32,916 nt of DNA, from positions 1-32,916 of the forward strand of contig CAJWOD010000001.1 of assembly GCA_913044145.1 (NCBI GenBank). The letters run 5' to 3'. This DNA is from an uncultured Nitrospina sp. GTDB taxonomy: Bacteria; Nitrospinota; Nitrospinia; Nitrospinales; VA-1. Below, in pieces: positions 2,064 through 28,429 of the stretch. Numbering within the stretch: position 1 is the stretch's first letter; every line of letters starts with the position of its first letter. A program made the position numbers and the translations under genes. Below the pieces are notes generated by a model that was not told where the DNA came from, did no database searches, and saw only the letters and a list, made by a program, of their open reading frames with translations.

Positions 2064-2259
2064 GAAGAATTGCTCCCCCAAGGCAACCCGCCCAAAGTAA
2101 TTAAAAGTTTAAAAGCTAATACCACTTACACTCATACTTGACCTCAAAATGTTTTTATCCAACGCAAGTGGTCTTTAATACTGAAGACTTGGGTAATCGA
2201 TCGGTCTAAAATAGTAAATATTTTTTGGCTTTTCTATTTCGGGAAAGGCTAGTACTAAT

Positions 2260-2922
2260 TTATTTGGGCTGGGCTGATTTGGCACATCTAAATCCGACGT
2301 TAAATAAACGAGATTTAGCATAAATGCTCATACGACTGCTCGGGGTTATTAAGTTAGCTGAGACATTAAAGGCTCCACCCATTACCACTCTTTTATCAAG
2401 TGTTTCACCTGAATATTCGCTTAGCTTAGCATCTGCAGTTGATGTCCACTCCCAAACATTGCCCGCTGTGTCGAATAACCCAAAAGGGTTTGGTTGTTTT
2501 TGGCCGACTGGGTGGTGACCAAGATCGTAATCTCCTCCATACCAAGCATAAGCCGCATCAGGTTTTTTACCCCAAAAATATTTTGTATTTGTTTGACCTT
2601 TTGCTGCTTTTTCCCACTCTTCTTGACTAGGCAACCTTTTACCTATTTTTTTACAATATGATGCGGCCTTATACCAAGTTATTTGCTCAGCAGGATGATT
2701 TTCACCTTTAAAAGAAAAATTTGCTCTTCCCATAACTTCCTTATACTTTTGTTGCGTAACTTCAGTCTTGTCAATATAGAAAGTATCAAGATCAATTAAT
2801 CTTTTTGATGTCCCGGCCTTGGGTTTTCCATGGGGTATTAAGGCCATCTCAGTTTCATTTCCAAAAAGATTTGCAGGGAGAAAGACTATTAGTATTAAAA
2901 TTGATATTATATGTCTTAGCAT
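2260..2922 (-). CDS. Secreted FGE-sulfatase domain protein (SUMF1/formylglycine-generating-enzyme family)
   Basis: 220 aa with an N-terminal signal peptide (ILILIVFLPANLFG). Family-typical motifs are ITWYKAASYCKKIGKRLPSQEEWEKAA, HPVGQKQPNPFGLFDTAGNVWEWT, GGAF and the C-terminal VGFRCAK. Confidence 0.75.
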   Translation of the reverse strand: MLRHIISILILIVFLPANLFGNETEMALIPHGKPKAGTSKRLIDLDTFYIDKTEVTQQKYKEVMGRANFSFKGENHPAEQITWYKAASYCKKIGKRLPSQEEWEKAAKGQTNTKYFWGKKPDAAYAWYGGDYDLGHHPVGQKQPNPFGLFDTAGNVWEWTSTADAKLSEYSGETLDKRVVMGGAFNVSANLITPSSRMSIYAKSRLFNVGFRCAKSAQPK

Positions 2923-2925
2923 ATA

Positions 2926-3075
2926 TTAAAATTTATTTTTATCGTCTTTTCTTTTTGATTTTGGGAAGTTTTTAGAAGAACCTGAAATCTTCAAAAATCC
3001 ACGTAATATAACCAACCCTACAATGATATAAACTATACTATAAAGTATGTAGTTTGCTTTATCTGGTATAGACAT
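2926..3075 (-). CDS. Hand-found 49-aa single-pass membrane protein
   Basis: Manual translation gives MSIPDKANYILYSIVYIIVGLVILRGFLKISGSSKNFPKSKRKDDKNKF*. A strong SD (GGAGG) sits 7 nt upstream of the ATG at 3075..3073. There is one hydrophobic helix and a lysine-rich tail. The stop lies 3 nt before the start of the FGE-like gene. It is below the ORF-track size cutoff. Confidence 0.45.
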   Translation of the reverse strand: MSIPDKANYILYSIVYIIVGLVILRGFLKISGSSKNFPKSKRKDDKNKF

Positions 3076-3121
3076 TTTTTAACCTCCATACTACATATTC
3101 TCCAGTTTCCTAGCTTTAAAC

Positions 3122-3151
3122 AAAAAAAAACCCGCCGAAAATTTCGGCGGG
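3122..3151 (-). terminator. Rho-independent terminator closing the cytochrome operon
   Basis: A perfect 10-bp GC-rich stem pairs CCCGCCGAAA (3131..3140) with TTTCGGCGGG (3142..3151). On the minus strand it is followed by a run of nine U (plus-strand A-run at 3122..3130). It begins 25 nt after the stop at 3176. Confidence 0.75.
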
Positions 3152-3175: not shown

Positions 3176-4939
3176 CTATTTAGGAAGCTCGTCACGCTGG
3201 ACCTTCCCTTCGTCATACATTTTCCGTGTTCGCTTTGTCATCCATACCAACCAACCCTGGAAGCAGATGAAAACTGCTGCAATGATTGGAGGCATGTAGT
3301 AAAGCGACGCAGGTAACGCAGGTTTCAGAATGGTGTAATACCATGTCGAGATAGCCATATGCTCATCATGCTCTTTATCCCAACCTGCCCATTGCATGAA
3401 ACTAACTGGAATGAACTGTTCAGAAGGAATCTGAACATCATCCGCACCTTCCGTCGTTAATGACCGCTTGAACATAACTTTGACACGACCCTGATGGAAA
3501 ATGGAGTCAACAACTTCAACTTTTCCTTCAGATTCTTTCTCAGAAATTGCATCAAAACCGTTACCTTTGAATTCTTGTACGGTTACGTCCAATTGATAGC
3601 CTTTTTCATTGGGCGGATTAGTCGCGTTATAATCCTTAGCCAAGAAGTTAGCCTTCCAAACGTCAACCGGCTTCTTAGAATCTCCATAGATAAAATACGG
3701 TTTTTCAGCGCCAAAAAGATCTTGTAATTGCCCCGGCCATTGGATTGCTACGGCATCGGGATATTCCGGATCCGTTGACAAGAACCTATTGTCGAATTCA
3801 ACAAGGTAGTAGACAGCATTTTCCTCTGCGCTCCATCGTGAACTTACCCAGAGGTTATCTGTTTTAGGGTCGAAATTACGTTTTCCCCTAGTGATCTGAC
3901 CCGCCATTGCGATGTAATGCCTCATTGGATTCTCAATCGTCTCTTCGGAAAGAGGAACAATTCTGTGATCCGTATATGAGGACTGCCAGCTTGGGTCATC
4001 AATTTTTGGAACCACCGGACCCTCTGTATAAACAGACTGAATAAGAAAGTCAGGAACTGGTTTGTTAGTCAGTGGGTCAATTTTCTTTCGCGGGCAAAGT
4101 GAGTTTACAAACGCCGCAACTTGCCAACGCTCCTTACCGGTCATCTGCTCCCGAAAGTTTGGCATAGGTGAACCATTCAAACCCGTCGAAATGGTACGGG
4201 CAACATTGAATGGATTAAAAGGATCACGGCGAGCTCCTCGGAAGTTCCAGCATTCCTGCCAGTTTGCTGCAACAATCGGGAAACCCCAATCATCCTTCAT
4301 GGTTGGGTTACCATCTCCTCGACCCTCGCCACCATGACACTCCATGCATTTATTTTTAATGAAGAGTTCCTTACCCGCATCAATATGCTCTTGAGGAACC
4401 CCTAGGTGGTATGGTCCTTTAGTCGCTGCCCATGGGGCATCTCCGAGTGGTCCTTTTCCATTATCAGCCGCTATACCGGTGATAACATTATTCACTTCTT
4501 CATCTTCAGTGTCATCAAAGGATCGATCCTGGACCAGAGTTTTTACAAAATTCACGACAGCTACGATTTCATCCTCCGACAAAAACTCACCCCAGGCAGG
4601 CATTGCTGAGCCCTGGAGGCCATTTTTTACGGTTTTGATTAAATCTGATTCCATTGGGAGCTCCCCTGAATCCGTTGTGCGGATTTTGAAAGTTCCCTGG
4701 ATGAAGTTACGTGGTCGAGTGTACAGACGTTCTGCAGAAGGGCCATCACCACCTCCTTCTACCCCGTGACACCAGACACAACGTTTAAAATAAACCTTCT
4801 TTCCCTTTTCTAGCAGGTCTTTTTTGACTCCATCCGGCACACCGGCAAATACTGCCCCCGGTGCTGCGAACAACGCCACTGCCAGAAAAAACATAAATAG
4901 GCGTTTGATGTAGTTATTATTTGTCATGGTCATTTCCAT
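3176..4939 (-). CDS. Dihaem c-type cytochrome fused to an EB_dh/NxrC-like (type II DMSO-reductase gamma-subunit-type) domain, with a C-terminal TM anchor
   Basis: Two CxxCH motifs are present (CVWCH, CMECH). The C-terminal half carries AVAIQWP...PYFIYGDSKKPVDVWKANF and IPVSFMQWAGWDKEHDEHMAISTWYY, resembling the ethylbenzene-dehydrogenase gamma (EB_dh) fold family. The terminal hydrophobic helix is PPIIAAVFICFQGWLVWM. The track ORF extends to a TTG at 5044. However, the signal peptide (MTNNNYIKRLFMFFLAVALFAAPGAVFA) follows Met36/38/40 and the upstream gene ends at 4971, so I place the start at 4939 (or 4933/4927). Confidence 0.75.
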   Translation of the reverse strand: MEMTMTNNNYIKRLFMFFLAVALFAAPGAVFAGVPDGVKKDLLEKGKKVYFKRCVWCHGVEGGGDGPSAERLYTRPRNFIQGTFKIRTTDSGELPMESDLIKTVKNGLQGSAMPAWGEFLSEDEIVAVVNFVKTLVQDRSFDDTEDEEVNNVITGIAADNGKGPLGDAPWAATKGPYHLGVPQEHIDAGKELFIKNKCMECHGGEGRGDGNPTMKDDWGFPIVAANWQECWNFRGARRDPFNPFNVARTISTGLNGSPMPNFREQMTGKERWQVAAFVNSLCPRKKIDPLTNKPVPDFLIQSVYTEGPVVPKIDDPSWQSSYTDHRIVPLSEETIENPMRHYIAMAGQITRGKRNFDPKTDNLWVSSRWSAEENAVYYLVEFDNRFLSTDPEYPDAVAIQWPGQLQDLFGAEKPYFIYGDSKKPVDVWKANFLAKDYNATNPPNEKGYQLDVTVQEFKGNGFDAISEKESEGKVEVVDSIFHQGRVKVMFKRSLTTEGADDVQIPSEQFIPVSFMQWAGWDKEHDEHMAISTWYYTILKPALPASLYYMPPIIAAVFICFQGWLVWMTKRTRKMYDEGKVQRDELPK

Positions 4940-4970
4940 ATGTTTAGGTTTAGTAACCGTTAAGTTCAAG

Positions 4971-5948
4971 TTATTCCCCACCACCTGAGGTAGAACCTTC
5001 TGTACCAAATGTTCGTGGATGCCAGCCTGTGTACCAATATTCAAACAGGATAACCTTCCAGATCTCCTCGGTTTTTAAATGCTCTTCCCATGGGGGCATT
5101 GCTGAAGACCAGGGGGTAGATTCGTTAGGTAGACCAGGTCCGCCCTTAGACACCCGCCAGAACAGAAATGCTTCCTGCAACATAGCAATGGTACCTGGAT
5201 CAATAAAGTTTGCAGGGGTGGGATTGAACACATGTGAGAACATTCCCAGCCCATTCAACTGATCCCCATGACAGTAATGGCAGTTCTGAAAGAAAATCGT
5301 GCCGCCTTCCGTCACATACTTCATGTACTCATGCTTATCCGCATCGAGAAATGGAAAACTATCTTTGTAGTTATCCTGCTCATCTATACGGAAAGGATTA
5401 TTAGTTGATTCCAGGGGATAAGTCTTGCCATGCACCTTAGTGGTAGCAGGAGGTGCGGGGTGAACCGTCCTCAACTCAACCGGTTCCTGGAAACTCGGAT
5501 AAATCGTGTTATACGTTGCGAACCCTACCAGGATCGGTAAAGCCGTAAAAACAACGATTCGTGCGAGTTTATACTCACCTATAATTGTTTTAACAATAGG
5601 AGCCCTGAATTCCCGAAAAGTCTCTGGATCCTGACTGATATAAAGAAAGGTTCCGATAGACCACATCACCATGTACGTAATAAACAGTGTCCAGGGAATG
5701 TGCGGATACAAAACATAATCATAAAAATAGAACCCAACTGACCAGACAAAAAGCCCTTTAAGAGAAACCGGGGGACTCAGCCTGAGCAATAGGTGCGTAA
5801 TGATCAAATACGCTACAAACAACAAAAAGTAAACGTATCTGTTAAGAATCCAGCCGACCTCCTTCGGTGTAAAAATAGGAAAAATAGCGTTATGAAACAC
5901 CGCTAGGCCGACAACAAATACCAAAAAGCTTACTAAATTTTTATTCAT
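4971..5948 (-). CDS. Polytopic membrane protein with a C-terminal monohaem class-I cytochrome c domain
   Basis: About five N-terminal hydrophobic helices precede a cytochrome c domain (FFQNCHYCHGDQLNGLG ... SSAMPPWEEHLKTEEIWKVILFEY), which is CcoP/class-I-like. The SD AGGAG lies upstream of the ATG at 5948. Confidence 0.75.
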   Translation of the reverse strand: MNKNLVSFLVFVVGLAVFHNAIFPIFTPKEVGWILNRYVYFLLFVAYLIITHLLLRLSPPVSLKGLFVWSVGFYFYDYVLYPHIPWTLFITYMVMWSIGTFLYISQDPETFREFRAPIVKTIIGEYKLARIVVFTALPILVGFATYNTIYPSFQEPVELRTVHPAPPATTKVHGKTYPLESTNNPFRIDEQDNYKDSFPFLDADKHEYMKYVTEGGTIFFQNCHYCHGDQLNGLGMFSHVFNPTPANFIDPGTIAMLQEAFLFWRVSKGGPGLPNESTPWSSAMPPWEEHLKTEEIWKVILFEYWYTGWHPRTFGTEGSTSGGGE

Positions 5949-5962
5949 TGCTGTCTCCTAAA

Positions 5963-7336
5963 TTAACTGCCAGCCGGGGGTTCGGTCTGACTAATAAAAT
6001 CCACAAGCTTATCGAGAGCCCGAACTGATAGCTGCTCCCCAAAGGTTGTGGGCATTAACCCATCCGGATATGATTCTCCGGCTTCTTCATTAAATACCAC
6101 ATAACACCCAGGGCACAGGATTGATTCCTTTACATATTCCTTGGTGTTCGTTGCTTTTCCTTTATAATTTGGATCTTTGATCCGTTCCGGCGCATTAATT
6201 TTCTCATGAAGTTTCGGCCCCAACTCACCAACCGCACCTTCAACGCCCGGAATCGTGTGACAAAGCGGACAACCCAGTGTGTTGATCATTGTCTGGATAT
6301 CCTCATTACCCGTCACGAAAACGGGGCCTTCCTCCTCATCTCCACCACTATCCTCCTCTACAACAGCACCACCGGTATTACCGGCATCATCCTGAGGTAA
6401 AGGAACGGTCACCGACGCAAATTCGCCCGGCGTATCCTTGGATTGAAGATAAGCGACTACAGCGTTTACCTCAACGCGACTCAAACTGATTGGCGGCTTG
6501 ACGATGACAGGCATTGGACTCTTAGTATCGTTAGCCTTACCAAAACCTTTTACCACATAACAGGTCGGACACATTAAAGACTCACGGAGGTAATCTTCTC
6601 CGATAAATTCATCCGGGCCACCTGCACGTCGATACTCTTCCGGTACCTCATCATGCTTACCCTTAACAATTCCAGAGGCTGGTTCTACTTCACCAACCGC
6701 CACAGGGCTTGTCGCATACCTATCCTCTTTTACGCGATCGTGACTTCTTTTCTCAACACCAAAAAGGTTTGGACAACGACCCATATGATCGCCAGGGTCG
6801 AAGGTGTGACAAAGAGGACACTGACCTTTTCCGATAGATTTCTGACCGGCAACCTGTTTGGCGCCAAAAATAATTACGCGCCCCATTTCAGCAAATTCTT
6901 CCATGGTCATATCACCCACAACCGCTGCTTCCTTGGGGGGTGGGTCAGATCGCTGTTGCGGCAACCAGTTGGTATAGCCCGCAAGCAGAACCGAAATTGT
7001 AGTATAGAAGAAAAAGGCTCTAATAATCGGTGCGGACTGCCTTTCAATTTTATTACTCTTGAAGAAAACTCCCCAAACCAACAACATAAAGAGAATAGTC
7101 CAAAGATAAGTTGAGAAAAAGAATACTAATTGATCTCCTTGAACAAGGCTGAACATATGCACGGTCATCAAAAAACAGGTGATGGCCATCGCCCCAAAAA
7201 TACCACCCCAGAGAGTCGAGTTAATTCCCTCCCTTTCTCTACAATGCTGGATAACATTGCCGAAAACATAAAGAGCAAATACGGCAAACATTATCGACAA
7301 AAATGAAAATAATATGTCATGCTGCTCTGGTAACAT
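5963..7336 (-). CDS. Membrane-anchored dihaem c-type cytochrome with an internally duplicated haem module
   Basis: About four N-terminal hydrophobic helices are followed by two homologous modules. Each contains CPLCH, then ES(L/I)xCPxCYVV, then MP, then an LS...(Y/F)(L/I) tail. An acidic/Gly-rich linker (VVEEDSGGDEEEG) separates them. A strong SD (GGAGGAAGGG) lies upstream of the ATG at 7336. Confidence 0.75.
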   Translation of the reverse strand: MLPEQHDILFSFLSIMFAVFALYVFGNVIQHCREREGINSTLWGGIFGAMAITCFLMTVHMFSLVQGDQLVFFFSTYLWTILFMLLVWGVFFKSNKIERQSAPIIRAFFFYTTISVLLAGYTNWLPQQRSDPPPKEAAVVGDMTMEEFAEMGRVIIFGAKQVAGQKSIGKGQCPLCHTFDPGDHMGRCPNLFGVEKRSHDRVKEDRYATSPVAVGEVEPASGIVKGKHDEVPEEYRRAGGPDEFIGEDYLRESLMCPTCYVVKGFGKANDTKSPMPVIVKPPISLSRVEVNAVVAYLQSKDTPGEFASVTVPLPQDDAGNTGGAVVEEDSGGDEEEGPVFVTGNEDIQTMINTLGCPLCHTIPGVEGAVGELGPKLHEKINAPERIKDPNYKGKATNTKEYVKESILCPGCYVVFNEEAGESYPDGLMPTTFGEQLSVRALDKLVDFISQTEPPAGS

Positions 7337-7420: not shown

Positions 7421-9394
7421 TTATTGTTGTTGCTGCGCAGGAACCGGAACTCCTTCAGGCGCCTTAGCTGGGATTTTCTTGGCTGTCAAACTACCCACCC
7501 AGAAAACCACAACGAACTGAACCCAAACAAATAAGGCGTTGAAGGTAAGCATTTTACCCGCTTCACCAATTGTCAGAGTATAGGCATCTACTGAGTTATC
7601 ACGAACAACCTCCGTTACGTGCCAGAACAATCGCACAGAGGAACGGATATAACCCATGAGACCCATCAACCAAGTGAAGGAAATCGCTAGAAGGAAAATA
7701 GCGTATGTTCCAACCTTAGACTGCGTGCCCCACTGGATATCACCATAAGATTCCGAATCCTTGAACATGGAGATATTGATCGCAGTACCCGCAAACAGAG
7801 TCGTAAGAGTAGATGTTACCTGAGGTACGGAAAGACCAACCCGCTGGTTAGCAGGAAGAAAGTAACCATACACGCCCAGGAAGATAATATTGGCAGCAGC
7901 ACCAATGAAGATCGCTGTAATCCAACAATTACCCACGGTTGCCCATGGCACCGTGATCTTCTTGTTCGCCCTTTGATACAGTAGAAAACAAAGAACCGTA
8001 CAGGTGATCATCAGGTTAACCGCTGTATTCTTAGCTGACATTACACCAAAGTGTCCAACGACTGGATGCTGCGCACCCCCCATTTCTTTCAACTCAGCGG
8101 GGGTCATAACTATGGTATGAGGCGTCATCCACATGGTGAAACAACAGATCAAGAGCAGAACCATGTACTTACAATATTTCATATATCGATGCGATCCCTT
8201 AACCCTCGCCATACCATTGTGCAGATATGAATTCGCGCCGAAGAAAAGCAGACCAATCATTACCGCTTGGATGATGAACAACCAAGCCATGATTCCACCC
8301 ATCAGGGTAATACCCATTTGCTGACGGAACGCATACACTTCTTTCATCAACCAATACCCTGCGAAAGGCAACGGGATCAAACCGAATATCGCAATAAACA
8401 TCGCGACATAACAAACCCAATCGTAATGAGCTTTCTCCTCTTCATTTTTAGCTGTGAGGTAATGGTACGCGGCATAAGCACCAACGATTCCACCCCCGAA
8501 TACAATGTTTCCGAGAATACGATGAACCCCAACTGGGTTCCAAAGCGTGGAATGAATGACATGCCAGATATTTCCCAGAAAACGACCTTCCGAATCAATT
8601 CCACCAGGGGCCTGCATGAAAGTAGCCCAAGAGTTGGCGAGATACATCAGCACCGTTCCGATCAGGTTGAGTAGAACCGAAAGACTACAATGGATCCACT
8701 TAAGGAACTTATCGTCCATCATTTTATCCCAACCATAATAATAAACATAAAGAACACCGGATTCTGCCAAGAACATGAGCGCATAAACGTGCATTACAGG
8801 ACGGAAAATACCTGCCATGTATTTGAAGAACCCAGGAAATAATGTGATAAATGTAAAGAGAAGAATACCCCCAAGAATTGCGGTCCATGAATATGCAGTC
8901 AGACTGACCTTCATGAGGTCTCTGGCTAACCGATCATACTTATCAGCCATCACAGGATCGTCGTCTCTGGTTCTAATTCCGATAAATTCTATGATCATAC
9001 AGAATATCGGTACCGCCAGAACGAAGCTACCAAAGTAGAGGTGTTGTTGGTTTGCAACCCAAAGAATGATTCGACTAGGTGCGAACTCATAAGTATTGTA
9101 GTCTTCCGGGCCTAATTCCGGCGCCGCATAGCCACTAACCGGCCCTTTTAGCGGATTACCTTCCCAGTCCTTATAAAAAACGTCCTGGCTCCACTCAATT
9201 TCCGGTTCGCCTTCGCCTTCAACAGCCTCTTCTGCCTGAACCTCTTTAGCAAAAGCCTCTTCAGCGAAAACTTGCTCTGCAAATGCCTCTTTGGCATCTG
9301 CAATGCCGGTCATTCCTGGAATCAGGTATATGGCTAGCGCCAAAACCAACCCCAGTGACAATGTCCCGATACTACGTGTGTTTTTCCCCAACAT
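7421..9394 (-). CDS. Cytochrome bd-like oxidase subunit (CydA homologue; no CydB partner in the window)
   Basis: 657 aa with about 13-14 hydrophobic segments. By-eye matches to E. coli CydA (recalled from memory) are listed next. QQHLYFGSFVLAVPIF matches AMYHFLFVPLTLGM (His19 region). ALMFLAESGVLYVYYYGWDKM matches [21 protein letters not shown] (Glu99 region). LMYLANSWATFMQAP matches LWILVANGWMQNP. NPVGVHRILGNIVFGG matches NPVAQVKFVHTVASGY (His186 region). The SD AAGGAGG lies upstream of the ATG at 9394. Confidence 0.75.
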   Translation of the reverse strand: MLGKNTRSIGTLSLGLVLALAIYLIPGMTGIADAKEAFAEQVFAEEAFAKEVQAEEAVEGEGEPEIEWSQDVFYKDWEGNPLKGPVSGYAAPELGPEDYNTYEFAPSRIILWVANQQHLYFGSFVLAVPIFCMIIEFIGIRTRDDDPVMADKYDRLARDLMKVSLTAYSWTAILGGILLFTFITLFPGFFKYMAGIFRPVMHVYALMFLAESGVLYVYYYGWDKMMDDKFLKWIHCSLSVLLNLIGTVLMYLANSWATFMQAPGGIDSEGRFLGNIWHVIHSTLWNPVGVHRILGNIVFGGGIVGAYAAYHYLTAKNEEEKAHYDWVCYVAMFIAIFGLIPLPFAGYWLMKEVYAFRQQMGITLMGGIMAWLFIIQAVMIGLLFFGANSYLHNGMARVKGSHRYMKYCKYMVLLLICCFTMWMTPHTIVMTPAELKEMGGAQHPVVGHFGVMSAKNTAVNLMITCTVLCFLLYQRANKKITVPWATVGNCWITAIFIGAAANIIFLGVYGYFLPANQRVGLSVPQVTSTLTTLFAGTAINISMFKDSESYGDIQWGTQSKVGTYAIFLLAISFTWLMGLMGYIRSSVRLFWHVTEVVRDNSVDAYTLTIGEAGKMLTFNALFVWVQFVVVFWVGSLTAKKIPAKAPEGVPVPAQQQQ

Positions 9395-9704
9395 AGCTTT
9401 AACCTCCTTTTGGATCTGATCAGGATCCGTTGCTAGTATTACAAAACTTAAATTAGGTACCTATTTTTTGTTAAATCCAAATTTATCTTCGCTTAGTTTT
9501 TATAGCCTTTTTTTATTAAAAATTTTTCGACAATCCCAAATAAATTCTTCAAAAAATTTTCTGATTCTACAAAAGCCGGTTCAAATCGCTTCAAAACACT
9601 TTAAAAGTAAAAGCAATAAACTCTACAACTCTCTAACTTTAAAGGGTTTTTAGACCCCTTTGTCCTAGCTTTTTTTTGGCGCACAGTTGCCCAAAATGAT
9701 GGTG

Positions 9705-18205: not shown

Positions 18206-19099
18206 TCAGTGAGCAGCCGAATGCGAACCGGAAAGGATCTGGTTTATTTTGAGGGTGGAGACGATGTGGGTGTCCATTCCCAGTTGTGTGGGTGTGTAGC
18301 CCAATGCCAGAGCCACCAGTTGCGGTAAGTGCAGGATGGGAATGGATTGGTTTTTCTTTTGCAATAATTCGATTTCCGGTTGATAAGAATCGAGGCTCAG
18401 GTGACAGAGCGGACATCCAGTGGCAACGACATCGGCACCATGTTCGATCGCATCCTGCAATGCATTACCTGACATACCTAAAGATGCATCCTTGTTCATC
18501 ATCACGATAGGAAAACCGCAACATTTGGTACGACTAGGATAATAAATCGGGGTTGCGCCCAAGGCTTCAAAGATATCTTCCATCCCTGTTGGGTTGTCTG
18601 GATTATCAAAGTCAGATCGTTCGGACGGACGCAGAACATAACAACCGTAAAAGGCTGCAACCTTTAATCCGGTCAAAGGACGCTTGATGCGAGACTTTAA
18701 TCTTGCCATTCCCTCTTCGGTTGCCAGGATGTTAGCAAAATGTTTGATTCTTGTTTTTCCATTGTACTGATGCCCCCCCTCTTCGAGGATGTCGTTGACT
18801 TTTTCTTTATACTCTTTACTTTCGTTTAAATGTGCTTCGGTTTTTTTTAAGGTCCCCTGACAGGTTGAACAAATAGTGACAATATCCAAACCCTGTTTTT
18901 CAGCGATGGAGAACGAACGCGCGTTTAAAGCATCTGCCAATAGTGGGCTCTTTTCGGAAACCACTCCCGCACCACAACAGGACGCGCTTTTCATTTCTAC
19001 AAAATCAAAGCCTAGGCCTTCCGCTGCTTTGGTTGTGGAGAGCATCAACTCTCGGGTCGCCCCTTTGGCGACACATCCGGTAAAAAGGGCAAACTTCAT
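18206..19099 (-). CDS. sdhE: CCG-domain (HdrB/SdhE-like) subunit of a type-E succinate dehydrogenase/fumarate reductase
   Basis: Two cysteine-rich CCG repeats are present. The first is FTGC...SASCCGAG...ICSTCQG and the second is FYGC...RTKCCGFP...ATGCPLCH. The start overlaps the sdhB stop (ATGA at 19096..19099). Confidence 0.75.
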
Positions 19100-20037
19100 T
19101 GATCCAACTCCTTGAATATACGTTTTACATCACGAACCTCTTCAATAGAATGATGAAGGATTGGTGGAACTTTTCCTTTGAGTAACATTCTGAGCCCAAC
19201 CGGAATCAAGCTGAGCAGTCCGGGGATATTAAAAATTCCCATCGACTCCACGGGAATTCTGTTTTCGTTTAGATTGCCGCTCCTCTTAACTGAATTAGTG
19301 AAGGACAGTGCGTGACGCGCACCATTATTGTTATGAACACCTTCCTCCAATGCCACGGTCATGATTTCTTTGATGCGATCGAAAGGACGTGCCGGTTTCG
19401 GGCAGCGTTCTACACATTCGGCACAATGGGTGCAATCCCAAATCCCTCCTGGCTCACTTAAGTCCTGTACGCGTTGCAGGGTTTTAGAGTCGCGGGAATC
19501 GCCGACAAACCGTTGCGCTTTTGCCAAAGCTGCAGGCCCGAGGAAATTATCATCCACTTCCAGAGTGTTGCAGTCGGAATAGCAGGCACCGCACATGATG
19601 CAAGTACTAGCGTCATCAATGACTAAAAACTCTTCCTGCGACTGACGTCTTTCTTTTACCGGTGGCTCTTCTTTTGGCTCCAGATAAGGTTTTATTTTAT
19701 TCACTTTGTCCCAGAACGGTGTGAAGTCTACTACCAGATCTTTTACTGGTTTCATATTACCGAGAGGTTCTAAAGTAATAGTATCGTTGTTATCCACAAG
19801 GTGTTCCGCCTGTCGTTGGCAAGCCAGTAAGGCATGACCGTTTGACTTGACTGCACACGAGCCACAGATTGCACTTCGGCACGACATCCTATAAGAAAGG
19901 CTGCCATCAAGAGTCCACTTGATCTGGTTCATACAATCCAGGAGCGTGGCACCATCGGGAATATCCAGTTGAAACTCTTCGAAATAAGGCTCGGGCTGTT
20001 TTTCCGGATTGAATCGTTTGATTCTGAAAGTTGCCAT
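19096..20037 (-). CDS. sdhB: Succinate dehydrogenase/fumarate reductase iron-sulfur subunit
   Basis: The 2Fe-2S motif is CRSAICGSC...[12 protein letters not shown] is a CxxCxxCxxxC motif, and [12 protein letters not shown] is a full CxxCxxCxxxCP motif. A C-terminal extension of about 80 aa is present. The track start is a TTG at 20040. The ATG at 20037 overlaps the sdhA stop (TGATG) and is the likely start. Confidence 0.88.
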
Positions 20038-21746
20038 CAATAAGTTCTTTCAGCAGGTTGATATTTAGTAATCACTACGGGTTTGGTTTTTATGACCAAT
20101 CCATCTGGAGAATCGTAGACCATGGAGTGATACAAGAATTTTTTATCATCTCGCTTTGGGAAGTCAGTACGATAATGCCCACCACGGCTTTCCCGTCGTT
20201 CCAATGCGGCTGTGGCTATAATTACTGCCATACCCAACATATTTCCTAACTCCATAATTTCATAAATTTCTGTATTGAACAATTTTCCTTTATCCGTTAC
20301 TTTACCTTTTTTGAACCGTTCCTGAAGCCCTTTGAGAGTTTCGATGCAGGTTTTAAGTCTTTGCTCATCGCGGAAAACACCGCAATGGGACATCATAATT
20401 TCTTTCATTTCGTCGCGAATCTGGTTGTAACTTTCGCTCCCCTCTCTTTGGAATATATCTTCAAATTTCTCTAAGACCCTTGCTTTTTCCTGTCCTTCAT
20501 TAACATTGCCAAAGTCCCTACCTCTGGCATATTCGAGGACAGATTTACCTGCACGTTCACCAAACACCACTGCATCAAGGAGAGAATTGGTTCCCAATCG
20601 GTTGCCACCATGAACAGAAACACATGCACATTCACCTGCCGCAAAAAAACCATGCATCTTTGTTCCTTCAGAATCGAGGATAACGTGACAATTATTATCC
20701 ACAGGAATACCTCCCATGGAATAATGTGCAGTGGGTTGAATAGGCAGAGGATCGGTAACGCAATCAATACCGAGAAAGTCGATTGCCAATTGTCGAATTT
20801 GCGGTAGGCGTTCCATGATTCGTGCTTCGCCCAGATGTCGAAGATCGAGATGAATACAATCTTCACCGTTGATGCCACGTCCCGCATCCATTTCACTTTG
20901 CTCTGCACGAGCCACAATATCGCGCGGTGCCAATTCCATTCTGGAGGGAGCATAAGTTTCCATGAACCGCTCGCCTTTATCATTGAGAAGGTAAGCACCT
21001 TCGCCACGAGCCGCCTCAGAAAATAAAATTCCTTGTCGGTATAACCCTGAAGGATGAAACTGCACAAATTCCGGATCTTCTAAAGGAATGCCAACCTCAA
21101 AAGCTGCCATCACGCCATCCGCGGTACTGGCAAAAGCATTTGATGTAATTTTAAATACTCGGCCATAACCTCCGGTACAAAAGACCACAGCTTTAGCCCG
21201 GATAACTTCGACTTCACCGGTTTGAATATTACTTACAATCACACCGTTACACTGGTCACCATCGATCACCAGAGAATGCATATACCACTCATTATAAATT
21301 TTAACGGATCTGGAGTTTTTCATCAGCTGCTCATGAAGAGCATGTAAAATCGCATGACCGGTTCGATCAGCGGAGAAGCAGGCGCGAGGCTTTGAATGAC
21401 CACCAAAGCTACGTTGAGCGATCTTTCCTTCTGGGGTGCGACTGAAAACACAACCCATGTGCTCTAGCTCATAGATAATTCTGGGTGCCGCCTTGACATA
21501 TTCCTCGACCGCATCCTGATCGTTTAGAAAATCACCGCCTTTGACGGTATCAAACATGTGTTCTTCCCAGCTATCCGGCTCAGAATTTCCAAGAGAAGCC
21601 GCAATGCCGCCTTGGGCTGCTCCAGAATGCGAACGGGAAGGATAAACCTTGGTCAATACGGCTACATCGAGTTCTTTACAAGCCTCAAGAGCGCATCGCA
21701 TTCCTGCAAGACCAGCACCGACGATCACCACATCATGTTGAATCAC
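20037..21746 (-). CDS. sdhA: Succinate dehydrogenase/fumarate reductase flavoprotein subunit
   Basis: The FAD fold motif is [15 protein letters not shown], and the covalent-FAD histidine context is [27 protein letters not shown] and [13 protein letters not shown] are also present. It has a GTG start with the SD GAGGTG 6 nt upstream, and no twin-arginine signal. Confidence 0.92.
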
Positions 21747-25502: not shown

Positions 25503-26870
25503 TTAAGGTTCCAGCGTCACATAATATCCCTGCCGCCCTCTTTGTACCAGCAGCAAAATACGATCTGGGTTATTTAGATTAGCGATGGATTTATTATAAT
25601 CCTCTTCAGTATCAATACGATCTTGATCCACTTGCCGGATAACATCTCCTGGGCCAATTCCTATTCTATCGCTAGCACTTTTAGATACTACATTAACGAC
25701 CACCATCCCTTTGCTGGTTCCCAAGCGATTTCTCCTAGCAAAATGTGGGTTATTTTGCTGAACCTGTAGACCTAGCCAGTCACGCGTAAACTCTGCAACA
25801 TACTGTTTTGGAATTGAGATAACTTGGACATCGACCTCTAGGTTTTTCCCATTTCGCAAAATTGAAAAGCGAACTTTATCGTCGACAGCATAAGAAGCCA
25901 TTCGGGCATGAAAGTCAGATTTGTTTATCACTTCGTGATTTTCAATTGCCAAAATTATATCGCTGCGCTTTATCCCTGCAACCTCTGCTGGGCTTTTCCG
26001 AGCAATACGAACCACCAACACCCCTTTTTTTCGATCGAGTTGAAAGTGGCGGGATAGTTGCGCATCCATTCCCTGTACCGATACTCCCAACCAACCTCGT
26101 CGCACTTTTCCAAATCGAATCAGTTCATCAACAATTCGTTTAGCATCGTCAATGGGGATGGCAAAACCAATGCCTTCTGCCTTATGGTAAATGGCCGTAT
26201 TTATACCAATTAAGGATCCATTGATATTTAAAAGAGGGCCACCACTGTTCCCGGGGTTGATAGATGCGTCCACCTGAATAAAATCGCTGTACACCTTATT
26301 TTTATCAACTCTTATATTTCTATTTAAGGCACTGATTATTCCGGTCGTCACGGTATGGCGCAAACCAAATGGGTTTCCAATGGCAAGAACTTGTTCGCCT
26401 ATCATCAAATCGTCAGAACGTCCCATTGGGATAAAAGGTAAAAACTGATCGGAATCTATTTTAATAATTGCAAGATCAGATTTCATGTCCGCCCCTATCA
26501 CTCGCGCCTTAAACTCCCGTTTATCACCCAAAGCCACATTAATTTCTGATGCCCGTGCCACGACATGCTCGTTGGTAATAATATATCCTTCTTTATTTAT
26601 AAGGACTCCTGAACCCAGACTTTTTTTATTGTTTTGATTTTGTGAAAAGAAATCGTTAAAAAATTGGTCAAAAATATTATTTCCAAAATTTCTAAAAGGA
26701 TTACGAGGGGAACGACCCGTTTCAGAGGTATAAATATTTACAACGGCGGGGCTTACTTTTTCTGCAGCGACAACAAGGGGTGTTCTGCGCTTATTTAACT
26801 CCCTTGCCAGACCGGAGGACGCATCAAGCAAAACGAAACACAAAAAAAACCAAAGCCAATAGATGCGCAC
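25503..26870 (-). CDS. htrA: HtrA/DegP-family periplasmic serine protease with two PDZ domains (paralogue 1)
   Basis: It has a signal peptide and the catalytic triad contexts TNEHVV, SDLAIIKI and GNSGGPLLN. Two PDZ-like regions are present (RRGWLGV..., WLGLQV...). It has a GTG start. The stop lies 1 nt before the ligA ATG. Confidence 0.85.
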   Translation of the reverse strand: MRIYWLWFFLCFVLLDASSGLARELNKRRTPLVVAAEKVSPAVVNIYTSETGRSPRNPFRNFGNNIFDQFFNDFFSQNQNNKKSLGSGVLINKEGYIITNEHVVARASEINVALGDKREFKARVIGADMKSDLAIIKIDSDQFLPFIPMGRSDDLMIGEQVLAIGNPFGLRHTVTTGIISALNRNIRVDKNKVYSDFIQVDASINPGNSGGPLLNINGSLIGINTAIYHKAEGIGFAIPIDDAKRIVDELIRFGKVRRGWLGVSVQGMDAQLSRHFQLDRKKGVLVVRIARKSPAEVAGIKRSDIILAIENHEVINKSDFHARMASYAVDDKVRFSILRNGKNLEVDVQVISIPKQYVAEFTRDWLGLQVQQNNPHFARRNRLGTSKGMVVVNVVSKSASDRIGIGPGDVIRQVDQDRIDTEEDYNKSIANLNNPDRILLLVQRGRQGYYVTLEP

Positions 26871-26901
26871 GTTAATATAAAAAAGAAGTTATAAGTAATT
26901 T

Positions 26902-26934
26902 GTAGGGAAAGCCAGATAGTCTAGCTTTCCCTAC
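26902..26934 (-). terminator. Strong intercistronic hairpin between the two HtrA genes (terminator/attenuator or mRNA-stability element)
   Basis: An 11-bp perfect stem pairs GTAGGGAAAGC (26902..26912) with GCTTTCCCTAC (26924..26934), with an 11-nt loop. No U-run follows immediately on the minus strand, so it is not a canonical intrinsic terminator. Confidence 0.45.
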
Positions 26935-26956
26935 TTTATCTTAGACAAGATATCTT

Positions 26957-28429
26957 CTATCCAACTTTAACAGCTATATAAATGGTTGTGCCCCCCCTTT
27001 TAACAAGAAATAGAACAGAATCACCTGTTTTTATAGAGCCCGATAAACGTTCGTAATCTTTCATGTTAGTGATGGGGTTACGATTCATTTCTGAAATAAC
27101 ATCTCCTCGGCGAATTCCAGACTCTGCGGCAGAGTTGCCTGGTGTCACATCAGAAACTAAAACACCCTGATCATCTTTTAACTGTAGGCTTTTTGCCAAT
27201 TCCGGGGTAATCTCTTGAACTTGCATACCTAGGGGATCTGTTTTGGCCAATACAGTAGGTTGCTTGTCCGTAAGAGTTTCAATTTTTATACTCAAAGTTT
27301 TAGGAGAACCTTCACGGACAATCTCTACATTCACAACCGAATTGGGAGTTGTTGCGGCAACTATTTTTGGCAAGTCTTCCATATTTTTTACTTCTTTACC
27401 ATCAAACCTTACAATGACATCACCCCGCTTGATCCCTCCCTTGAATGCTGGACCATCTGGTATAACATCTCCTACCAAGGCTCCTTCACTCTGATTTAGC
27501 CCAAACGATTTGGCAAGTTCAGGGGTAATTTTTTGAATCATAACTCCTAGCCAGCCACGGGTTACCGTTCCTTTCTCCTTCAAGTCTTTTAAAATTCCCT
27601 TTGCAATATTAATAGGTATGGCAAATCCAATACCCACATTACCACCGCTATTACCTGAGATAATCGCAGTATTAATTCCGATTACTTCACCTTCTATATT
27701 AATCAAAGGGCCGCCGCTATTACCAGGGTTAATTGATGCATCAGTCTGTATAAATTCATCATAGGGACCCGCGCCAATACTTCTTCCTAAAGCACTCACT
27801 ACTCCTACTGTAACGGTATGGCTAAGACCAAAAGGATTTCCAATGGCCACGACCCATTCACCTACTTCAAGATGTTCAGAGCTTCCTAATCTCAAAAATG
27901 GAAATTCTTTAGGGGTATTTTCATCACGATTAATCTTAATTAAAGCAATATCAGTTTTAGTGTCAGCACCGATCAAGGTGGCGGTATATTCTTTTTCGCT
28001 ACCCCCATCCTCCAGGCTAACGATGATCTCCTCCGCTCCTTCTATTACATGATTGTTAGTGAGGATATGACCTTCTTTATCTATTACAAACCCTGACCCC
28101 ATGCCGCGTTTGGGTTTTTGGTTAGGTCGTTCCCCAAAAAACTTGTCATAAAAATCGCGAAAAGAGTCAGGTGAACGTCTCTGACCGGGACCTGGTCGGC
28201 CACCTCCAGGAGGACGAAAATTCCTGTGTGTTTTTTCTATTTTTGATTTTGTGCTGACATTTACCACTGCGGGATCCAGCTTCTTAGCAATATTCACGAA
28301 TAAGTTGCTTGAGAGTGGTTGTGCAGTACTGCTCAATGCAAACGAATATTTAGGGGTGGAAATTATGGAAAAGATAAAAAGAAAAATTGTGCCGGCTGAA
28401 CGAAAAAAAAGATGGAAAGATTTGTGCAT
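26957..28429 (-). CDS. htrA: HtrA/DegP-family periplasmic serine protease with two PDZ domains (paralogue 2)
   Basis: 490 aa with a signal peptide. The triad contexts are TNNHVI, TDIALIKI and GNSGGPLIN. There are two PDZ domains (RGWLGVMIQ..., PLGMQVQE...). Confidence 0.88.
   Translation of the reverse strand: MHKSFHLFFRSAGTIFLFIFSIISTPKYSFALSSTAQPLSSNLFVNIAKKLDPAVVNVSTKSKIEKTHRNFRPPGGGRPGPGQRRSPDSFRDFYDKFFGERPNQKPKRGMGSGFVIDKEGHILTNNHVIEGAEEIIVSLEDGGSEKEYTATLIGADTKTDIALIKINRDENTPKEFPFLRLGSSEHLEVGEWVVAIGNPFGLSHTVTVGVVSALGRSIGAGPYDEFIQTDASINPGNSGGPLINIEGEVIGINTAIISGNSGGNVGIGFAIPINIAKGILKDLKEKGTVTRGWLGVMIQKITPELAKSFGLNQSEGALVGDVIPDGPAFKGGIKRGDVIVRFDGKEVKNMEDLPKIVAATTPNSVVNVEIVREGSPKTLSIKIETLTDKQPTVLAKTDPLGMQVQEITPELAKSLQLKDDQGVLVSDVTPGNSAAESGIRRGDVISEMNRNPITNMKDYERLSGSIKTGDSVLFLVKRGGTTIYIAVKVG

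Follow-up and report, generated by a model that had tools for sequence, protein, structure and literature searches.

A cydA-like gene and its operon

The window, which is the whole stretch of uncultured Nitrospina sp. DNA that was analysed (32,916 nucleotides), carries on its minus strand at 7421..9394 one uninterrupted open reading frame of 657 amino acids. A Shine-Dalgarno sequence, AAGGAGG (9403..9409, minus strand), can be read 8 nt upstream of the ATG at 9394. The frame was present in the ORF list and has full-length homologues, which are 94-97% identical in Nitrospinota MAGs and ~60% identical in Nitrospira, the N. moscoviensis orthologue (bd-like_3) among them at about 60%. The product scored 77.2 bits with Pfam family PF01654, whose gathering cut-off is 26.2 (E 1.2e-21), a similarity far above chance, over aa 108-355, which correspond to profile positions 3-239 of 418 only. 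When E. coli CydA was compared with a 225-sequence profile of the family by hhalign, aa 107-317 were aligned with CydA 8-212 at 93.9% probability (E 1.6e-7). No NCBIfam model matched the protein.

Three genes lie downstream on the same strand, and the bd-like gene is predicted to be co-transcribed with them. The first (5963..7336) encodes a 457-aa subunit with four transmembrane (TM) helices and a periplasmic dihaem cytochrome c, its haem motifs (CPLCH) standing at aa 173 and 356. It is homologous to Kustd1711 of Kuenenia stuttgartiensis (7ZS0, E 6e-8), although Kustd1711 has DPEKY and the nitrite-oxidiser proteins have CPxC[YF]. The second gene (4971..5948) encodes a 325-aa subunit, again with four TM helices, and a monohaem cytochrome c (CHYCH at aa 223). 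The third (3176..5044) encodes an alternative NxrC-like subunit, a haem-b protein made up of a signal peptide, a dihaem cytochrome c, an EbdC/NxrC-like (type II DMSO reductase gamma) domain and a C-terminal TM anchor; its true start is probably the ATG at 4939. This subunit matched Pfam Cytochrom_C twice, EB_dh (E 0.018), TIGR03477 (E 1.2e-7) and PDB 6h5l_B (E 1.1e-38). An EB_dh match is on record for its Nitrospira orthologue. Directly after this last gene of the operon lies a GC-rich palindromic hairpin (3131..3151), a possible terminator.

The arrangement is widely kept. Among 80 loci with the bd-like gene, the 457-aa subunit was found in 75, the 325-aa subunit in 73 and the NxrC-like subunit in 71, and the syntenic loci include those of N. 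moscoviensis and of a Manganitrophaceae genome (L077). Neither cydB nor cydX occurs anywhere in the 33-kb window, and a second PF01654 gene is absent from it as well. We also considered the 4-TM domains of the two cytochromes c as a replacement for CydB and rejected them in that role, because they showed no similarity to CydB, nor to CydA or each other (probability <1%). The sequence-only reading had proposed cytochrome c partners for the bd-like protein, and its relatives gave this proposal new support: in some of them (P0307 and P0373) the bd-like protein carries the neighbouring dihaem cytochrome c at its C-terminus as a fusion. The window's own 457-aa cytochrome is similar to these two with E 3e-16 and 2e-18, respectively (BLASTP), and the fused relatives keep the 13-helix body. 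The fusions support electron entry from cytochrome c, not from quinol.

Fold, topology and the place of the Q-loop

We modelled the protein with AlphaFold on a 92-sequence alignment that spanned three clades. Its diversity came from a profile built without the close groups, whereas the profile from the mixed alignment (A2) had returned almost only Nitrospira sequences. The resulting model had a pLDDT of 82 and a pTM of 0.81, as against a pLDDT of 54 with an earlier 18-sequence alignment. In a Foldseek search against the PDB the best 10 matches were all CydA chains (E 1.6e-8 to 4.5e-5), followed by CydB chains, and TM-scores against the CydA chains, normalised to CydA, were 0.47-0.63. That the protein is a CydA homologue, as had been claimed from the letters, was thus found by Pfam, hhalign and Foldseek alike, in each case far beyond chance. 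Model and hydropathy agreed on 13 TM helices, preceded by a hydrophobic helix at the N-terminus, in keeping with an earlier count of about 13-14 hydrophobic segments. The predicted topology places 22 Lys and Arg residues inside and 10 outside.

The first 34 residues (9293..9394, minus strand) resemble a signal peptide, as had been suggested: K4 and R7 precede a hydrophobic stretch (9-28), which is followed by P26-G27 and by A32-D33-A34 before K35. Hydropathy peaks at 14-32, the model forms a helix at 9-28, the hydrophobic core measures 17-20 aa, and such a segment is common to all homologues. The composition fits a predicted Sec signal peptide, which would be topologically required because CydA helix 1 begins in the periplasm. 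Next comes a periplasmic N-terminal extension (aa 35-106; 9077..9292, minus strand), delimited in alignment A1, in which an acidic, Ala-rich stretch gives way to a conserved beta-hairpin region (DVFYK...G.V.G..AP; model strands 68-75 and 81-85). Canonical CydA has no equivalent of this extension, and its acidic part is longer in Nitrospinota than in Nitrospira. The CydA-homologous core with helices 1-5 (aa 107-317; 8444..9076, minus strand) was defined by hhalign against E. coli CydA, by the alignment with PDB 9r2g_A and by conservation counts.

The departure from CydA begins behind this core. Helix 6 and a short periplasmic segment, PLPFAGYWLMKEVYAFRQQMGIT, occupy aa 318-363 (8306..8443, minus strand), with invariant columns in alignments A1 and A4. 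The segment is near-invariant and lies where the CydA Q-loop begins; its pattern PLPFAGYW was sufficiently conserved for use in the genome scan. The claim that the Q-loop is missing was borne out: hydrophobic segments 6 and 7 are separated only by MKEVYAFRQQMGIT (aa 350-363, 14 aa), and neither Pfam nor hhalign aligned any part of the window protein with E. coli CydA 213-360, the Q-loop region. Behind helix 6 come the 14-aa segment and then two further helices. These are TM7 and TM8 (aa 364-423), and with the periplasmic loop that bears H426, Q442-H443 and H448 they fill the Q-loop position as an insert of aa 364-451 (8042..8305, minus strand), bounded by the AlphaFold model and by the pairing of M452 with Met393. 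Helices 9-13 (aa 452-636; 7487..8041, minus strand) complete the protein and carry the conserved residues M452/N456, R584, S585, R588 and F590-W591-H592.

Four helices have therefore been gained, in agreement with the lower bound of the four to five extra helices that had been counted, but not all of them are C-terminal as had been supposed, since TM7 and TM8 sit between helix 6 and the M452 helix. Helices 9-13 could not be aligned significantly with CydA helices 7-9 (best E 0.06-0.65). Two weak pairings, of M452 with Met393 and of R588/W591 with R448/W451 of the GRQPW motif, both agree with the table of Murali et al., and jointly they would point to the insertion of two helices at each of two internal places (TM7-8 and TM10-11), not to a C-terminal extension. 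The missing Q-loop is no proof that quinone takes no part as substrate or product, and a different quinone site is conceivable.

Haem ligands, active-site residues and class assignment

Alignment with E. coli CydA gave the equivalences His19=H118, Glu107=E211, His126=H235 and His186=H291. The sequence-only reading had His19, Glu99 and His186 conserved. The two histidines stand, whereas the Glu99 position is occupied by an invariant tyrosine, Y204, and the conserved glutamate is E211, the equivalent of Glu107. H118 is His in 85/85, 108/108, 22/23 and 6/8 homologues of four identity bands, and the pairing of His186 with H291 is secure in both the hhalign and the 9r2g_A alignments. The active-site scaffold of helices 1-4 and two proton-channel residues were invariant in the 92 sequences from three clades. 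In the second half of the protein, the local alignment that sets M452 opposite Met393 is non-significant (E 0.65), but M452 is also strongly conserved and is probably the Met393 equivalent. Glu445 corresponds to S585 in the alignment of Murali et al., as it does in a weak sub-profile alignment, and under either mapping of helices 9-13 there is no Glu at this position.

It is at this point that the protein parts from the database annotation "cytochrome ubiquinol oxidase subunit I", that is, an ordinary quinol-oxidising subunit I of cytochrome bd. The source annotations and the PF01654 match speak for this name, yet the match is limited to the N-terminal part of the profile, the Q-loop with its Lys252/Glu257 quinol site and the CydB/CydX partners of canonical bd (E. 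coli bd-I 6RX4/6RKO, Geobacillus 5DOQ) are gone, Glu99 and Glu445 are both lost, and 13 helices stand against 9. The canonical proteins share the fold, the alignable helices 1-5 and the four equivalences given above; the window protein adds to these the four helices, the predicted signal peptide and the periplasmic extension. We give the annotation next to no credence, and as far as sequence can decide the matter it is refuted.

Several additional histidines had been listed as possible ligands of further cofactors, and about half of this list failed on conservation. H278 and H448 are lineage-specific, and H281 is fixed in the orthologues from Nitrospina and Nitrospira but not beyond them; H443 is conserved across the family, and H426 largely so. 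H592, which had not been on the list, is conserved across the family too. In the predicted topology every His or Met candidate ligand with family-wide conservation is periplasmic-side, and H235 is cytoplasmic-side. Close to two of these histidines stand Q442 (in 85/85 close and 108/108 Nitrospira-type homologues) and F590 (in 85/85 and 101/108, respectively), so that the window protein reads QHP and FWH.

The grouping of these residues recalls a proposal from the literature, made first for the Nitrospira paralogue NIDE0901, of a novel haem-copper-type cytochrome c oxidase on a bd-like sequence. H426, H443 and H592, which are widely conserved and periplasmic-side, would here bind CuB and a high-spin haem, and relatives with HHP and HWH motifs in place of QHP and FWH lend the idea some appeal. 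The fold, however, is that of CydA, with no haem-copper oxidase chain among the significant Foldseek matches. The only chains of that superfamily listed were NorB 3o0r_B (first model only, probability 0.09, TM 0.10) and 9g83_N (0.06), and both were absent from the matches of the better model. One putative CuB histidine is moreover Q442, and the putative high-spin haem histidine is F590. We rejected a haem-copper oxidase on these fold and ligand grounds and regard it as very improbable. The NIDE0901-like protein of Nitrospira, itself a putative terminal oxidase, belongs to the same family and, compared by description, has the same helix count and shares H118, H291, H443 and H592. It differs in having His at the Q442 and F590 positions (Mueller et al., 2021), and its gene adjoins complex III and an OR-N1 gene, outside the four-gene cluster described here.

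Within the cytochrome bd superfamily the protein agrees with the OR-N2 subfamily. Its 13 helices and N-terminal hydrophobic helix, without the quinol site, correspond to the 14 predicted helices of OR-N2, the N-terminal one included. The residues H118/Y204/E211/H235/H291/M452-N456/S585/W591 and Y218/Y220 match the OR-N2 reference residues H99/Y183/E190/H213/H269/M430-N434/S563/W569 and Y197/Y199 (Supplementary Table 6 of Murali et al.) at a constant numbering offset of +19 to +22. OR-N2 operons contain "multiple cytochromes c and an EbdC homologue" (Murali et al., 2021), and the operon here likewise holds the bd-like gene, two membrane cytochromes c and the EbdC/NxrC-like subunit, with petABD absent. 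The OR-C family, by comparison, has CxxCH within the CydA-like protein and 8 helices, and there is no CxxC motif in the whole of the 657-aa protein. Because Pfam, hhalign and Foldseek all indicated CydA, and because the residue signature and the operon content agree, we assign the protein to OR-N2. On balance we favour the interpretation that it is the haem-b membrane subunit of a conserved "cytochrome bd-like oxidase" module, fed by cytochrome c and most likely reducing O2.

Proposed electron path and terminal acceptor

In the mechanism that we propose, electrons from a high-potential periplasmic donor, in Nitrospina nitrite oxidoreductase (NXR), would enter by way of the NxrC-like haem b together with the partner proteins' five c-haems. 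The haems of Kustd1711, the homologue of the 457-aa partner, lie at ~ +350 mV. Electrons would then reach a b558-like low-spin haem near the periplasmic face, with H291 and M452 as ligands, and pass to a haem held by H118 within the bundle of helices 1-4, a site to which protons would be delivered from the cytoplasm via E211 and H235. Quinol would not be oxidised at any Q-loop. The terminal reaction would most likely be the reduction of O2, with a proton-motive force built, as in cytochrome bd, from the separation of charge; of all the steps this is the least certain, and both the haem types of OR-N and its reduction of O2 are putative and unproven.

Several observations favour O2 as the acceptor. 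One is the invariance, described above, of the helix 1-4 scaffold and of two proton-channel residues. A number of Nitrospinia lack any haem-copper oxidase, the cluster ranks within the 40 most abundant transcripts of N. moscoviensis, and in an aerobic Mn oxidiser the corresponding TO_1 cluster lies at the 98th expression percentile while complex IV is poorly expressed. Other points count against the proposed mechanism. Glu99 and Glu445, which matter for the di-haem site in canonical bd, are both replaced, and the Nitrospina protein has Gln and Phe where the NIDE0901-like paralogue, the favoured terminal-oxidase candidate of Nitrospira, has His. The residue mapping in helices 9-13 rests on non-significant alignments. 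Finally, the nxr cluster of Kuenenia stuttgartiensis contains kustd1712-kustd1709, which, as known by gene order, encode a cydA-like protein, a dihaem c, a monohaem c and a dihaem c in the same order as here. The fact that the cluster is kept in the nxr locus of a strict anaerobe argues against an obligatory O2-reducing role.

For exactly this cluster, and for bd-like_3 of Nitrospira, the literature has proposed reverse electron flow (Lücker et al., 2013; Mundinger et al., 2019). In that scheme the bd-like protein would serve as the membrane part that reacts with quinone in an "alternative complex III-like" assembly, through which NXR electrons would travel uphill, by way of the NxrC-like subunit and the c-haems, to quinone, driven by the proton-motive force, and so provide reductant for CO2 fixation; in anammox bacteria the module could run in either direction. 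Besides its position next to nxr in anaerobic Kuenenia, this proposal can draw on a third clade (L082). In the 16-kb locus of that clade an ActB-like Mo-pterin/FeS protein and a multihaem c precede the four genes of the cluster, and an NrfD-like quinol subunit was not seen there. The degraded state of the putative oxidase-type ligands (Y204, S585, Q442, F590) would fit it as well. Set against this are the lack of a recognisable quinone site, all Q-loop residues being gone, and the oxidase-like grouping of conserved His and Met residues at the periplasmic face. The cluster is, furthermore, the most highly expressed "terminal oxidase" cluster in the aerobic Mn oxidiser, and organisms without another oxidase still require an O2 reductase. 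We consider reverse flow a possibility to be taken seriously, though an unlikely one.

A related and rather doubtful alternative is that the bd scaffold has been rebuilt into a different redox site, and that in this orthologue group the complex is not an O2 reductase but a haem-b module fed from the periplasm, through which NXR and cytochrome c would be linked with the quinone pool or with some other acceptor. Tyr204 may then have taken over from Glu99, and the new invariant periplasmic-side residues H443, H592, R584/R588 and Y390 from Glu445. A rebuilt site of this kind would explain the presence of the cluster in anaerobic anammox bacteria.

Candidatus Manganitrophus oxidises Mn(II), not nitrite, and its TO_1 complex has the same make-up, a bd-like protein of clade I being joined there by two cytochromes c and by a cytochrome b in the periplasm, from which it follows that the bd-like module is not tied to NXR. 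The module ranges over Nitrospinota, Nitrospirota, anammox bacteria and some further phyla, and is known under several names, as bd-like_3 in Nitrospira, TO_1 in Manganitrophus and kustd1712-1709 in Kuenenia. A second bd-like copy lies a few genes away in Nitrospira, whereas none was found within 8 kb in Nitrospinota. We found nothing essential that sets the window protein apart from the bd-like oxidases described for Nitrospira and Nitrospina (Murali, Gennis and Hemp, 2021; Lücker et al., 2010, 2013; Mundinger et al., 2019).

The core of the sequence-only reading is supported and agrees with the literature: the protein is a homologue of CydA in which the Q-loop is gone and helices have been added, one that has cytochrome c partners and would not oxidise quinol at a Q-loop. 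Neither the protein nor its architecture is new. For the protein of Nitrospina, Lücker et al. (2013) reported 14 TM helices, conservation of the haem-b ligands and the absence of the Q-loop, and Mueller et al. (2021) described the same four-gene cluster together with its Gln and Phe substitutions. The window thus holds one further copy of an already catalogued cluster, and the question of how electrons reach oxygen from nitrite is neither first raised nor made newly testable by it. The corrected residue map, the cytochrome c fusions and the AlphaFold model may aid the design of mutants or the reading of a future structure. A recognised cytochrome c oxidase is missing from many Nitrospinia and from nearly all Nitrospira, and for that role the standing candidate is the present protein family; at stake is the path that electrons take from nitrite to oxygen in the ocean's main nitrite oxidisers.

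CydA homology and architecture of the bd-like protein

The bd-like protein is encoded by a single ORF of 657 amino acids (7421-9394, minus strand), with a GGAGG Shine-Dalgarno sequence 8 nt before its ATG. The similarity to CydA proposed in the sequence-only reading is real. PF01654 matched at 77.2 bits (cut-off 26.2, E 1.2e-21), although the match covers only the N-terminal part of the profile (239 of 418 positions). The single sequence retrieved one CydA chain from the PDB (9r2g_A, E 0.002), and an 18-sequence profile improved this match to E 4.8e-7. Alignment of a 225-sequence profile to E. coli CydA with hhalign paired aa 107-317 with residues 8-212 (93.9% probability, E 1.6e-7). The AlphaFold model from an 18-sequence alignment was poor (pLDDT 54), while 92 sequences from three clades gave a model with pLDDT 82 and pTM 0.81. 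With this model, Foldseek returned ten CydA chains (E 1.6e-8 to 4.5e-5, TM-score on target 0.47-0.63), from E. coli bd-I and bd-II, M. tuberculosis, M. smegmatis, C. glutamicum and Geobacillus, followed directly by CydB chains. No haem-copper oxidase chain appeared in these results, and the predicted fold argues against reading the protein as a haem-copper oxidase.

Three independent alignments to CydA agreed on the residue map. The scaffold retains the equivalents of E. coli His19 (H118), Glu107 (E211), His126 (H235) and His186 (H291). His19 and His186 had been correctly recognised by eye, but the claim that Glu99 was kept did not survive: that position is an invariant tyrosine (Y204), and the conserved glutamate, E211, corresponds to Glu107. 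Conservation was checked in the 92-sequence alignment and in 224 full-length homologues, which were divided into four bands of identity. Invariant or nearly so family-wide are H118, E136, Y204, E211, Y218, Y220, W222, H235 and H291-R292 in the N-terminal part, and E352, Y354, Y390, R397, H443, M452, N456, R584, R588 and H592 in the remainder. The extra histidines suggested as further cofactor ligands fared unevenly, since H443 is conserved throughout the family, whereas H278 and H448, like H392 and H402, are lineage-specific, and H281 is fixed solely in the Nitrospina and Nitrospira orthologues. In these orthologues Q442 and F590 are Gln and Phe, at positions that are His in some more distant relatives (HHP and HWH motifs). 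Mueller et al. 2021 described Nitrospinae bd-like oxidases as having Gln at one proposed CuB His position and Phe at the proposed high-spin-haem His position.

Besides an N-terminal helix (aa 9-28), the model contains 13 membrane helices, in agreement with hydropathy and with the 13-14 hydrophobic segments counted earlier. With the N-terminus outside, cytoplasmic loops carry 22 Lys and Arg residues versus 10 in periplasmic loops. The N-terminus (K4/R7, a hydrophobic core, P26-G27, and A-D-A preceding K35) looks like a Sec signal peptide, which would be needed topologically because CydA helix 1 begins in the periplasm and is preceded here by about 70 extra residues. After it, aa 35-60 (window 9217-9292) form an acidic, Ala-rich, near-repetitive stretch, KEAFAEQVFAEEAFAKEVQAEEAVEGEGE, modelled with moderate confidence (pLDDT ~61-66); Nitrospinota orthologues have it, and in Nitrospira it is shorter or differs.

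The Q-loop is absent. As the earlier reading held, the loop following helix 6 is only about 14 residues long, and it is the family's most conserved stretch (PLPFAGYWLMKEVYAFRQQMGIT). The helix after it is probably not the equivalent of CydA helix 7. In the best secondary hhalign alignment, non-significant alone (E 0.65), the nearly invariant M452 was paired with Met393, the same pairing as in the published alignment of Murali et al. On this basis, a pair of helices (aa 364-423) and a periplasmic loop with His residues occupy the place of the Q-loop, where Lücker 2013 had already reported helices. Another weak signal, which aligns R588/W591 with R448/W451 in the GRQPW motif of CydA, matches Murali's assignment of Ser for Glu445. 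Should both signals be right, the four extra helices would represent two hairpins inserted internally and not an extension of the C-terminus; extra helices are present as had been noticed, but their placement at the C-terminus does not fit the pair at aa 364-423.

Operon and partner subunits

Downstream on the minus strand lie genes for a 457-aa cytochrome (5963-7336; four N-terminal TM helices and two CxxCH), a 325-aa cytochrome (4971-5948; four TM helices and one CxxCH) and a 622-aa protein (mechanical ORF 3176-5044; signal peptide, two CxxCH, a further domain and a C-terminal TM helix). The mechanical ORF of the last begins with a TTG at 5044, and its first 74 nt overlap the preceding gene. 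Its true start is likely the ATG at 4939 (M36, followed by MTMTNNNYIKRLFMFF), which gives a normal signal peptide and removes the overlap; orthologue alignments mostly start at residues ~23-76, and some reach residue 1. A GC-rich hairpin (3131-3151) lies 3' of this last gene. Upstream of the operon is hisD, and the remaining window genes are housekeeping. Neither cydB nor a second cydA-like gene was found in the window.

The dihaem c region of the 622-aa protein closely matches PDB 6h5l_B (E 1.1e-38), and its C-terminal domain matches TIGR03477 (type II DMSO reductase gamma subunit, E 1.2e-7) and Pfam EB_dh (E 0.018), a match also recorded for the Nitrospira orthologue. The partners jointly have five c-haem motifs, plus one probable haem-b domain. 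The 457-aa cytochrome has a homologue in Kuenenia, Kustd1711 (7ZS0, E 6e-8), a dihaem cytochrome whose gene belongs to the nxr cluster; its potential is about +350 mV, and it has Ca2+ bound 6.9 Å from each haem iron. The Kuenenia order is kustd1712 (cydA-like), 1711 (dihaem), 1710 (monohaem) and 1709 (dihaem). Behind the first haem domain, a CPxC[YF] motif (aa 256-260) is found in all Nitrospinota and Nitrospira orthologues, whereas Kustd1711 has DPEKY. Behind the second, a CPGCY (aa 408-412) occurs, among the orthologues listed, in the window only; the others most commonly have NPSAY, DPSAY or SPSTY. Both motifs could form disulfides.

In some relatives, such as P0307 (882 aa), P0373 (1014 aa), P0121, P0124 and P0131, the bd-like C-terminus is fused to the final TM helix and the two haem domains of the 457-aa cytochrome (BLASTP of P0307 and P0373 against the cytochrome, E 3e-16 and 2e-18). 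The fusion is topologically consistent, with a cytoplasmic bd-like C-terminus, one more helix crossing and periplasmic haem domains. These fusions, new or sharpened here, are direct genomic evidence for a single complex of the two proteins in which c-haems feed the bd-like subunit.

Neighbouring genes were also recorded. Directly downstream of the operon is an FGE-sulfatase-domain gene (2260-2922, minus strand, region 2071-3121; Pfam E 4.1e-39) with a signal-peptide-like N-terminus, missing at this position in the closest Nitrospinota MAGs (loci L002 and L005). In 58 of 80 loci, all Nitrospirota, such genes are located some 1 kb upstream of the bd-like orthologue, with two tandem copies in Ca. 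N. bockiana; the association recurs in two distinct arrangements. At 18206-21746 (minus), a flavoprotein (FAD_binding_2 and Succ_DH_flav_C) is grouped with an Fe-S subunit and an HdrB-like protein carrying a CCG domain; together they make up a succinate dehydrogenase/fumarate reductase of non-classical type that lacks a haem-b anchor, which fits a host running the reductive TCA cycle. Two tandem HtrA/DegP-type serine protease genes, each with Trypsin_2 and two PDZ domains, occupy 25503-28429 (minus).

Proposed electron flow and place in the family

Electrons would enter from the periplasm, in Nitrospina from NXR through the NxrC-like subunit. The c-haems would hand them to a b558-like haem at H291/M452, from which they would reach a haem at H118, with protons drawn from the cytoplasm through E211 and H235. 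The terminal acceptor is uncertain, but we favour O2, given the invariant active-site bundle, the lack of any other oxidase in some Nitrospinia and the very high expression of the cluster in aerobes. Roughly half as likely is a module running in reverse to reduce quinone, a reading to which the loss of Glu99 and Glu445, the Gln and Phe that replace His of relatives in the Nitrospina/Nitrospira group, and the presence of the cluster in anaerobic anammox bacteria all lend weight.

The observation behind this analysis was largely correct, apart from Glu99, the helix placement and histidine conservation, and its interpretation was reasonable; both had been published, and the finding is therefore a rediscovery. 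For N. gracilis, Lücker et al. 2013 described 14 TM helices, an N-terminal part alignable with CydA, retained haem-b ligands, helices substituting for the Q-loop and absent quinol-binding residues, and called the function enigmatic, possibly alternative complex III-like. Mundinger 2019 named the cluster bd-like_3, placed it within the 40 most transcribed genes and proposed reverse electron flow; in Manganitrophus it is TO_1, with expression in the 98th percentile. Kop 2024 and the 2025 Nitrospirales survey assign the proteins to OR-N1 or OR-N2 and stress that biochemical confirmation is absent. With a constant offset, the residue signature here is that of the OR-N2 row in Supplementary Table 6 of Murali et al.

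Close homologues (94-97% identity) are from Nitrospinaceae and Nitrospinota MAGs, and Nitrospira orthologues share about 60% identity. The window is collinear with contigs of Nitrospinota MAGs. Of 80 loci, 71-75 keep the four genes in the window's order (bd-like, then the 457-aa and 325-aa cytochromes, then the 622-aa protein), among them N. moscoviensis and a Manganitrophaceae genome. A third clade (43-48% identity) comprises Acidobacteriota, Rokubacteria and others. One of its loci, L082 (2268-12504), has bd-like, cytochrome c, cytochrome c and EB_dh genes ordered as in the window; immediately before them lie genes for a multihaem cytochrome, an ActB-like protein of 1055 aa (Mo-pterin/4Fe-4S) and a further cytochrome c. 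Within this 16-kb locus no quinol subunit of the NrfD type was seen, and its content suggests that the bd-like module is combined there with parts of alternative complex III into a hybrid. Relatives occupy at least 595 loci in species-representative genomes, and a search of 1.84 billion proteins gave 870 cluster representatives at E <= 1e-3. The bd-like protein is a member of a known, still uncharacterised family that extends far past the nitrite oxidisers.
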